Of a DNA stretch of 64,000 bases, positions 1,796 to 3,150 are shown piece by piece. Location of the stretch: the NCBI GenBank assembly GCA_050123335.1, contig JASFHH010000005.1, positions 792 to 64,791 on the forward strand, given 5' to 3'. Made by a program: the position numbers and the translations under genes. The notes beneath the pieces were generated by a model. The model was not told the origin of the DNA and searched no databases. It was given only the letters and a program-made list of their open reading frames with translations. How positions within the stretch are numbered: the stretch's first letter is position 1; each line of letters begins with the position of its first letter. This DNA is from Gammaproteobacteria bacterium (GTDB lineage Bacteria > Pseudomonadota > Gammaproteobacteria > UBA12402).

Positions 1796-2960
1796 GAATA
1801 GTTTTATGTATAAGAGATTATTGAGGTTGCCGTTTAAAAATAGTAAAAGCTTCTTGCTTTTGGGTCCGCGTGGTACCGGAAAAACCACATGTGTTCTTGC
1901 TAATGCTCCAAATGCTTTATATGTAGATTTATTAGAAACTAGGTTGTATCAGCGATTGGTGGCAGATCCCCAGAGTTTGGAAACCATGATTCCTGCAGGG
2001 TTCGCTGATTGGATTATTTTAGATGAAGTGCAGAAAGTTCCGCTTTTATTGAACGAAGTTCATCGTTTAATTGAACACAAAAAATATAAGTTTATTTTAA
2101 CTGGTTCGAGCGCAAGATCATTAAAACGCAAAGGAGTGAATTTATTAGCTGGGCGAGCGTTGACTTATCATATGTATCCATTAATTGCATTAGAATTAGG
2201 AGATGATTTTGATTTAGATAAAATACTTCAATATGGCAGCCTAGCAGCAATAACTCAAGAAACTGAACCAAAAAAATATTTAGAAGCGTATGTACAAACA
2301 TATTTGCGCGAAGAAGTTTTGCAAGAAGGGTTGACGCGTAATATTGGTGATTTTGCTCGATTTTTAGAGATTGCAAGTTTTTCGCAAGGATCGCAAATCA
2401 ATATGAGCTCAATTGCGCGCGAAGCTAACATTAGCCAAAAAATTGTTGTCAGTTATTTTAATATTTTAGAAGATTTATTGTTAGGATATCGATTATTTCC
2501 TTTTGTGAAAAAAGCTAAACGACGTTTGATTACTAGTCCTAAGTTTTATTATTTTGATGTTGGGGTTTATCAATATTTAAGACCAAAAGGGCCGTTTGAT
2601 AGAACAGAAGAAGTTGGAGGTATTGCATTAGAATCTTTGTTTTTTCAAGAACTCAAAGCAATCAATGATTATTTTCAATTTGATTATAAATTACATTATT
2701 GGCGAACAAGTACTGGATTGGAAGTGGATTTTGTAGTTTATGGTGAAAAAGGTTTGATTGCGTTTGAAATTAAGCAAAATAAAACGATTAGAAGTAAAGA
2801 TTTGAGAAATTTAAAATCTTTCAAGGAAGATTATAAAATTGCAAAATTATATTTGATTTATGGCGGTGATCGACGCGAGTATTATGGTGATATTGAAGTT
2901 ATTCCTTTTGTTGAAGCTATAAAATCTTTACCGGATTTATTAAACGTGAGTTTGGTCTAA
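1794..2960 (+). CDS. AAA+ ATPase, DUF4143/COG1373 family
   Basis: Walker A LLLGPRGTGKTT, Walker B ILDEVQ, and a C-terminal DUF4143-like region. The last 7 codons are supplied by the inserted palindromic element. Confidence 0.8.
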   Translation: MNSFMYKRLLRLPFKNSKSFLLLGPRGTGKTTCVLANAPNALYVDLLETRLYQRLVADPQSLETMIPAGFADWIILDEVQKVPLLLNEVHRLIEHKKYKFILTGSSARSLKRKGVNLLAGRALTYHMYPLIALELGDDFDLDKILQYGSLAAITQETEPKKYLEAYVQTYLREEVLQEGLTRNIGDFARFLEIASFSQGSQINMSSIAREANISQKIVVSYFNILEDLLLGYRLFPFVKKAKRRLITSPKFYYFDVGVYQYLRPKGPFDRTEEVGGIALESLFFQELKAINDYFQFDYKLHYWRTSTGLEVDFVVYGEKGLIAFEIKQNKTIRSKDLRNLKSFKEDYKIAKLYLIYGGDRREYYGDIEVIPFVEAIKSLPDLLNVSLV

Positions 2961-3150
2961 GGATTTGCTGCAAACGCGAAATATTCGGCAATACGGCGTT
3001 ATTTTTCAATAAGTTAACTCGATGTAGAATGGCTACACCTTCGTTAACTTATCAAAAAATGCCTTGTCTTGCCGAATATTTCGCGCTTTCGCAACATGCA
3101 GCCTCCTTTTTTCATAGGGTTGCGTAATCCTTAGACCAAACTCACGTTAA
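2940..3150. mobile_element. MITE-like palindromic element (~211 bp) with 25-bp perfect terminal inverted repeats
   Basis: ttaaacgtgagtttggtctaaggatt at 2940-2965 and its reverse complement at 3125-3150. Internal imperfect inverted repeats (cgcgaaatattcggcaa / ttgccgaatatttcgcg). It is absent from the paralogous gene end at the window start. Confidence 0.6.

Follow-up and report, generated by a model that had tools for sequence, protein, structure and literature searches.

Positions 2943-3148 of the window (the whole stretch of DNA analysed, 64 kb in length) are best explained, with a probability of about 0.7, as a non-autonomous, MITE-like derivative of the IS982 family of insertion sequences, standing across the 3' ends of two convergent genes, one for a DUF4143/AAA_14 ATPase and one for a small protein of the CBU_0592 family. 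If so, the few bacterial MITEs on record whose parent family can be named would gain an IS982-derived miniature element from an uncultured, AT-rich gammaproteobacterium. Nothing fundamental is changed by this; hairpin-forming MITEs across gene 3' ends are well known.

The sequence-only reading of this DNA had described here a MITE-like, internally self-complementary element of 211 bp, bracketed by perfect 25-bp terminal inverted repeats (TIRs). Such an element is real, and its bounds are now refined to a fold-back of 206 bp, or of 204 bp (2944-3147) if the ends are read as AC...GT. The inverted arms, 2940-2965 and 3126-3151, span 26 nt and pair at all positions but one (2942/3149), so that the inverted repeats stand and the figure of 25 bp was an overcount by that mismatch, the perfect core being 23/23 nt. 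This 23-mer gave no chance match in 100 shuffles of the window and occurs only twice in the 64 kb, once in each arm. The interior is likewise self-complementary, with the outer and inner pairs of internal arms matching at 91% and 89%, respectively. Taken together, the two halves align almost base for base except for the extra segment of about 37 nt in the right one, and the pairing of the arms spans about 95 nt. When tested for single-strand structure the whole element was stable, with z from -12.6 to -16.5: the RNA fold reached -99.2 kcal/mol on the + strand (z -14.0) and -110.2 kcal/mol on the - strand (z -16.5), and the DNA fold -64.6 kcal/mol (z -12.6). Its GC content is 41%, compared with 33% for the window. 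Six-frame translation showed no transposase-like ORF in the element, and the IHF consensus WATCAANNNNTTR is absent from it. The coordinates of all features are collected in Table 1.

Table 1 Features of the fold-back element, its neighbouring genes and the other repeats and palindromes discussed (positions in the window; TIR, terminal inverted repeat)
Feature	Position	Strand	Remark
ATPase 3'-end relic, 37-nt direct repeat of 2906-2942	8..44	+	36/37; 33 perfect
DUF4143/AAA_14 ATPase gene, 388 aa	1794..2960	+	Pfam AAA_14 + DUF4143
Candidate target-site duplication TAA	2941..2943 and 3148..3150	.	holds only with AC...GT ends
MITE-like fold-back element (probable), 206 bp, without transposase ORF	2943..3148	.	
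Left TIR AACGTGAGTTTGGTCTAAGGATT	2943..2965	+	from 2942, 22 nt identical to the IS982-like left end in L002
Inner fold-back arms 2972-2994/3066-3088 and 3001-3018/3043-3060	2972..3088	.	apical loop ~3019-3042
Extra 37-nt segment, right arm only	3089..3125	.	small side hairpin
Right TIR	3126..3148	-	perfect reverse complement of 2943-2965
Convergent small gene, 83 aa, CBU_0592 family	3147..3398	-	precomputed Pfam hits; own Pfam scan missed the family
Fold-back, 206 bp, TIR ACAGTACTTACGAGATATTTT	43108..43313		between nitroreductase gene and lptD
Four GC-rich hairpins	45865..46015		between lptD stop and likely surA start at 46021

The ends of the element carry the assignment to a family. A 20-mer TIR query (ACGTGAGTTTGGTCTAAGGA) was scanned across 596 Gb of species-representative genomes and gave two matches, one in a Porphyromonas MAG (L001) and one in Proteobacteria bacterium SZAS-81 (L002). 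The match in L002 reaches 22/22 nt and lies about 100 nt upstream of a transposase gene, toward which it is oriented; this gene is frameshifted and truncated, and its product belongs to the IS982 family (NCBIfam NF033520, E 4e-19, 69 bits; Pfam PF13612). The match in L001, also of 22 nt, is solo and may be due to chance or be a relic. When the transposase fragment of L002 was used as a protein query, only 21 relatives emerged, mostly fragments. In this IS982 subgroup, L008 is a complete IS of 1015 bp with 20/20 inverted repeats (AACGTCAGTATGGTCTAAGC) and a flanking duplication CTTT (or TCTTTA), and L007 is an internally deleted IS of 776 bp, which shows that such derivatives of the subgroup arise. 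L009-L011, from a Legionella-like MAG, have an IS with AACGTGAGTTCGA ends, and additional left ends of the subgroup were found in L005 and L006. Against the cut-off of 130 bits for the IS982 profile, P0124 scored 164, ORF2 of L009 156 and ORF2 of L008 138.

The nearest transposases in cultured bacteria, at about 50% identity, are encoded by annotated IS982-family genes on plasmids. The IS on Piscirickettsia salmonis plasmid NZ_CP039041.1 (WP_033923708.1) has 19/19 inverted repeats (AACGTGAGTTCGATATAA) and an AACCT duplication, and its end is identical to the element TIR at 17/20 positions; the IS on Legionella pneumophila plasmid NZ_CP021275.1 (WP_106195543.1) has the end AACGCGAGTTCGATATAAC. 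All of the aligned ends (12/12) begin with AACGT.A.T, and the TIRs of the element are identical to the L002 end. Ends of the IS982 family follow the consensus AC(N)6T(N)5TT and are flanked, if at all, by direct repeats 2-10 bp long (PMC7335449). Read from A2944, the element agrees with it in the AC, T9 and T15, while position 16 is A and not T, giving 4/5 conserved positions. In both arms a GAAATATT box stands some 35 nt inward of the end, at the same offset as in the left ends of the IS982 subgroup, a marginal likeness (p ~0.04), and the similarity of the element interior to IS subterminal regions is marginal too (best p 0.036-0.044). Because the ends are IS982-family ends, the transposon origin put forward from the sequence alone, that of a MITE-like element, is now backed by independent evidence. 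A tblastn search of the 64-kb window with an IS982 transposase gave no match, and a related autonomous partner was found in other organisms only; an intact IS982 with AACGTGAGTTTGGTCTAAGG ends in the host would be a mobilising partner. More generally, AACGTGAGTT...TAAG is a recognisable end motif for an IS982 subgroup common to Legionella, Piscirickettsia and related MAGs, and could aid the annotation of such relics in their genomes and account there for breaks in assemblies and for changed gene ends.

We propose that the element would have lost the transposase and kept the transposase-binding ends of about 20 nt on both sides, as a fold-back of one IS end. A DDE transposase from the IS982 subgroup with AACGTGAGTT ends, which occurs in Legionella, Piscirickettsia and related uncultured gammaproteobacteria, would then have mobilised it in trans, and it may have inserted into an AT-rich TAA site at which the 3' ends of the two convergent genes met. 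At present it would be a fixed relic and is probably immobile.

The target site depends on how the ends are read. With AC...GT ends a TAA duplication flanks the element, and the predicted empty-site junction is ...GGATTTATTAA|AATCTTTGTG; by our own estimate such a duplication has a probability of about 0.03-0.15 by chance and is statistically weak in a genome of 33% GC. If the ends are instead AAC...GTT, as the AA invariant in 12/12 aligned ends suggests, the duplication shrinks to 1 bp.

The copy searches covered collections without the host genome, and the copy number is therefore that of the 64-kb window alone, in which the element occurs once. In genome contigs the 20-mer TIR had no copy beyond L001 and L002, in metagenome contigs neither the TIR nor an element-specific 23-mer had a match, and in viral contigs a 19-mer TIR had none, the window's own copy being absent from each of these three sets too. 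In a plasmid collection, blastn with the whole element gave only a 27-nt chance match. A 61-aa peptide that the element encodes in one frame had no match in a word-indexed library and, in a full HMMER scan, three noise matches at E~1e-4; this negative is weak, since a 57-aa partial ORF called by JGI on another contig with the element (L012, below) is absent from both libraries. A string search of the literature for the TIR sequence gave no match.

These results bear on the strongest of the other explanations, in which an IS982-type element was reduced or rearranged in place to two inverted left ends, is single-copy and never spread as a MITE family. The collections searched hold no other copy, a clear target duplication is missing, many relatives of the IS subgroup are decayed fragments, and the element stands at a breakpoint of synteny, the relative L003 (below) joining the ATPase gene to yhbY and having the CBU_0592-like gene elsewhere. 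However, a simple internal deletion cannot yield two arms that are both of left-end type and are complementary along some 95 nt, the TIRs are still identical at 23/23 positions, and the copy searches were made without the host genome. We consider a one-off relic of this kind rather unlikely, and prefer the MITE-like derivative.

The locus was then compared with that of relatives. A 9,265-bp contig of JGI 3300042731 has the element at the same locus and encodes an identical 388-aa ATPase, including the NVSLV tail. A 934-bp contig of JGI 3300057051 (L012) also has it at the same locus and breaks off within the left TIR. L012 differs from the window at 33/926 positions: 1/195 in the element (2994 C>T, retained as a G.U pair), 4/250 in the small gene and 22/306 in yhbY. 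The low divergence of the element (1/195 vs 32/731 overall) has a Fisher p of 0.007. Slower evolution of the element under constraint was considered and rejected, the neighbouring CBU_0592-like gene being similarly conserved and the jump lying in yhbY; the pattern looks like a recombination boundary and not like constraint on the element. Since the element is present in both strains, its insertion is older than their split, and we take two strains or more to have it fixed at this site.

L003, the nearest relative represented by DNA, has an ATPase 84% identical to that of the window and no element after it. There the ATPase stop abuts yhbY directly, and the CBU_0592-like gene lies across a PNP gene. 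Homology of L003 to the window covers 1705-2938, 3174-3373 and 3433-4129, which places the element exactly at the synteny breakpoint, and this position may explain why a clean duplication is missing. A further ATPase, P0003, is 76% identical to that of the window; its gene adjoins priA on a second contig from this sample, perhaps from another organism. Neither L003 nor P0003 was accepted as an empty site, since the gene order of L003 differs and P0003 adjoins priA on another contig.

The end of the ATPase gene has a partial repeat at the start of the window. Positions 8-40 are identical to 2906-2938 (33/33), the similarity continues to 2942, the base before the element, and the copies are unrelated thereafter. 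The Logan unitig L004 begins exactly at position 8, as expected for a repeat of at least 31 nt. The sequence-only reading had taken 1..113 for a paralogous gene end, identical up to the insertion point and then different, into whose duplicate the element had inserted after duplication. The divergence after 2942 was confirmed, the identity up to it being 36/37 and so not complete. The paralogous gene did not hold up: in the JGI 3300042731 contig, the one assembly with visible gene calls on that side, only 54 nt separate the end of a greA-like gene from the first position of the window, so that 1-113 belongs to a relic of at most about 170 nt and not to a gene. The similarity would end there anyway, ATPase homologues stopping 1-15 residues past the conserved LPxLL, and the proposed order of events is neither supported nor contradicted.

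The same repeat allows a composite cassette, in which the 2.9-kb segment between 8-44 and 2906-2942, with a 411-aa ORF and the ATPase gene, moved as one and the MITE formed one terminus. The right repeat does end at the base before the element, the ATPase unit with its upstream palindromic boxes (1705-2938) is placed differently in L003 with respect to the CBU_0592-like gene, and the 76%-identical ATPase gene stands beside priA on another contig of the sample, perhaps in another organism. Yet on the left, where position 1 is the limit of the window, a second TIR is not seen, the segment holds no recombinase, and the repeat can also be a remnant left by an older copy of the ATPase, and we regard joint movement as very improbable.

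Two further palindromic segments that had been noted, 43108-43313 and 45865-46015, are both real, fold strongly with z of -10 and -9.9, and share no sequence relationship with the element at 2943-3148; the lptD and surA genes next to them were confirmed by Pfam. The earlier view that the genome carries several families of such elements thus applies to structure only: different structures exist. The window also has a perfect 39+39 palindrome at 60304-60382 between convergent genes. Intergenic hairpins like this last one, and our own estimate that a 20-mer has about one chance match in 596 Gb (perhaps the solo one in L001), would fit a locally evolved palindrome such as a bidirectional terminator or REP-like hairpin with IS982-like ends by chance, but we give this very little credence, since the L002 match extends to 22 nt and has precisely the place required of an IS982 left end, the same terminal decamer is found at annotated, duplication-flanked IS982 elements of cultured bacteria, the hairpin has no U-tract terminator, and its GC content is 41% against a background of 33%.

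The ATPase product ends in ...PDLL-NVSLV-TAA, in which AAC GTG AGT TTG GTC TAA (2943-2960) is the first 18 nt of the left TIR. The earlier claim that this gene takes its final codons and its stop from the element is therefore correct, with five codons (NVSLV) and TAA inside the left TIR. In an alignment of 15 ATPase homologues (62-84% identity) all stop 1-15 residues past the conserved LPxLL motif, which means that the element struck the extreme end of the gene and that no conserved part was lost; the protein is altered to a negligible degree. The small gene has its stop codon, read as the reverse complement of 3147-3149, across the right boundary of the element. Removal of 2944-3147 and one TAA from the sequence would give ...GAT TTA TTA AAA TCT TTG TGA (DLLKSL*) as the end of the ATPase gene and would retain the TAA stop of the small gene, so that the predicted pre-insertion genes end in KSL* for the ATPase and overlap by about 15 nt.

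The main present effect of the element would be exerted by the imperfect hairpin of about 100 bp that it places at the 3' ends of both transcripts, as a barrier to readthrough or exonucleases or as a substrate of RNase III. A role of this hairpin at the RNA level, in both 3' UTRs, is suggested by analogy with the effects of RNase III and RNase E on Correia and ERIC repeats and with the sRNAs of Coxiella QMITEs (PMC10969869, PMC5896051). No Rfam family was a credible match to the element, either at gathering thresholds or with the limit relaxed to E<=10. A promoter and terminator scan of 2600-3500 on both strands found no terminator-like site at the hairpin, that is, no GC-rich stem with a U-tract, and only weak promoter-like hexamers (6 vs 3.6 expected). 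Neither result points to a specific RNA function.

A wider reading is that the element also marks, and perhaps mediated, the relocation of a DUF4143-ATPase cassette, made up of the upstream palindromic operator boxes and the gene and bounded by the 37-nt repeat, and that it forms a shared 3'-end module which gives both convergent genes their stop codons as well as a hairpin for processing or termination. We judge this improbable; if true, it would mean MITE-driven gene shuffling together with gene-end domestication in an uncultured Coxiella/Legionella-like lineage.

Among known systems, the Rickettsia palindromic elements, the Correia elements of Neisseria and ERIC are likewise small hairpin repeats in or near gene ends that alter termini (PMC10969869), and RNase III or RNase E can process such repeats (PMC10969869). 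They differ in being high-copy and of characteristic sequence, and Rickettsia palindromic elements lie in frame inside genes, whereas here the last five codons only are affected. Closer in host type are QMITE1 and QMITE2 of Coxiella burnetii, structured palindromic MITEs of an AT-rich, intracellular-type gammaproteobacterium (PMC5896051). Copies of QMITEs overlap the annotated 3' ends of genes by a few to about 50 bp, QMITE1 has direct repeats of 2-3 nt, and QMITE2 is 150-190 bp in size (PMC5896051); in size and direct repeats the element agrees with them only in part. Compared by description, QMITEs differ in their number of about 50 per genome, in yielding sRNAs and in having no identified parent IS (PMC5896051); QMITE1 has an IHF site, for which there is no counterpart here, and QMITE2 has a GTAG REP targeted by IS1111 (PMC5896051).

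With the AACGTGAGTT-ended IS982 subgroup (L002, L005-L009, P. salmonis and L. pneumophila) the element shares the terminal sequence, the AC start and T9, and the flanking duplications of the subgroup are short and variable in length. It differs in its size of 206 bp instead of about 1 kb, in its lack of a transposase, in having two left-end-like arms and in having no autonomous partner within the 64-kb window. The nearest precedent is MITECca01 of the Cardinium endosymbiont of Oedothorax gibbosus, which is derived from ISCca4 of the IS982 family (PMC9769881). Compared by description, MITECca01 has many copies alongside intact parental ISs, in contrast to the one copy without a visible parent here, and the phyla differ. 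Like the element at 2943-3148, MITECca01 (about 240 bp, in a host-associated bacterium) is transposase-less with inverted repeats of IS982 type (PMC9769881), so that IS982-derived MITEs are already documented.

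A direct repeat of 37 nt links window positions 8-44 with 2906-2942 (36/37 identical, 33 perfect), and the upstream copy, at 8-44, is a relic of the 3' end of a DUF4143-ATPase gene. This relic is flanked by a greA-like gene, just beyond the window edge, and by a 411-aa ORF; the first base of the Logan unitig L004 is exactly window position 8. Immediately 5' of the ATPase start, repeated palindromic boxes were found at 1695-1790 (TGCAAATT..CCCTATTAGGGCGAATTTACA). The 84%-identical relative (L003, 2150-2260) has conserved these boxes along with the gene, and their appearance suggests a promoter or operator module of the ATPase unit. 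Beside the first element, the small convergent gene at 3147-3398 (-) codes for an 83-aa protein assigned to Pfam PF26604 (CBU_0592) by precomputed annotation; a Pfam-A scan of this protein gave no family, the library used probably not including the PF26604 model.

Other hairpins and fold-back elements were present in the window. The second fold-back element, flanked by a nitroreductase gene (-) and lptD (+), has a 21-nt TIR, ACAGTACTTACGAGATATTTT, with an AC start like the first element, and shows no sequence kinship with it. The four successive GC-rich hairpins are located between the lptD stop (45853) and the probable surA start at 46021, which gives a signal-peptide-like N-terminus with the SurA_N domain from residue 26, and a mechanical ORF starting at 45850 runs through them. 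The perfect palindrome is placed exactly between the convergent 56218..60303(+) and a thiD-like gene, 60363..61253(-), and the imperfect hairpin directly follows a 217-aa ORF, 6875..7528(-), judged from its sequence to be phosphoglycerate-mutase-like. The structured RNAs, called at the Rfam gathering threshold, are ordinary.

Hairpins and fold-back elements and Rfam matches in the window, and split sites in subgroup transposases
Feature	Coordinates	Strand	Remarks
Perfect palindrome, 39+39 nt	60304-60382		RNA fold -64 kcal/mol, z -15.6
Second fold-back element, 206-bp	43108-43313		z -10
Four successive GC-rich hairpins	45865-46015		z -9.9
Imperfect hairpin, 31+31	7545-7608		z -6.7
tmRNA	32061-32417	-	Rfam
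TPP riboswitch	62585-62682	-	Rfam; adjoins thiamine genes
tRNA	41233-41304	-	Rfam
tRNA	47089-47161	+	Rfam
A-run split site, L006	~2900-2945
A-run split site, L008	~545-560
A-run split site, L009	~2905-2930

The 447-aa ORF at 4668-6011, which has no Pfam match, contains several long poly-lysine runs (e.g. RKRKKKKKKKKKLK) within a repeated C-terminal motif; possible readings are an effector-like protein directed at eukaryotes and an artefact of low complexity.

A possible, statistically weak solo IS982-type end (reverse complement AACGTGAGTTATAGATAAGC) was located at 8512-8533, in the 18-nt gap separating the hicA/hicB toxin-antitoxin pair (7724..8511) from a putatively kdsB-like 287-aa ORF, 8530..9393 (-), so read from its sequence; the match to the subgroup, the IS982-family insertion sequences sharing end sequence with the first element, consists of the 10 terminal nt and TAAG. 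In three subgroup members from uncultured relatives, the transposase is carried by two ORFs, broken at an A-run in the same position (e.g. GCCAAAAAATGAAAATC, GCGAAAAAAAGGGAAATC), and this split may reflect either programmed frameshifting at that site or parallel decay.
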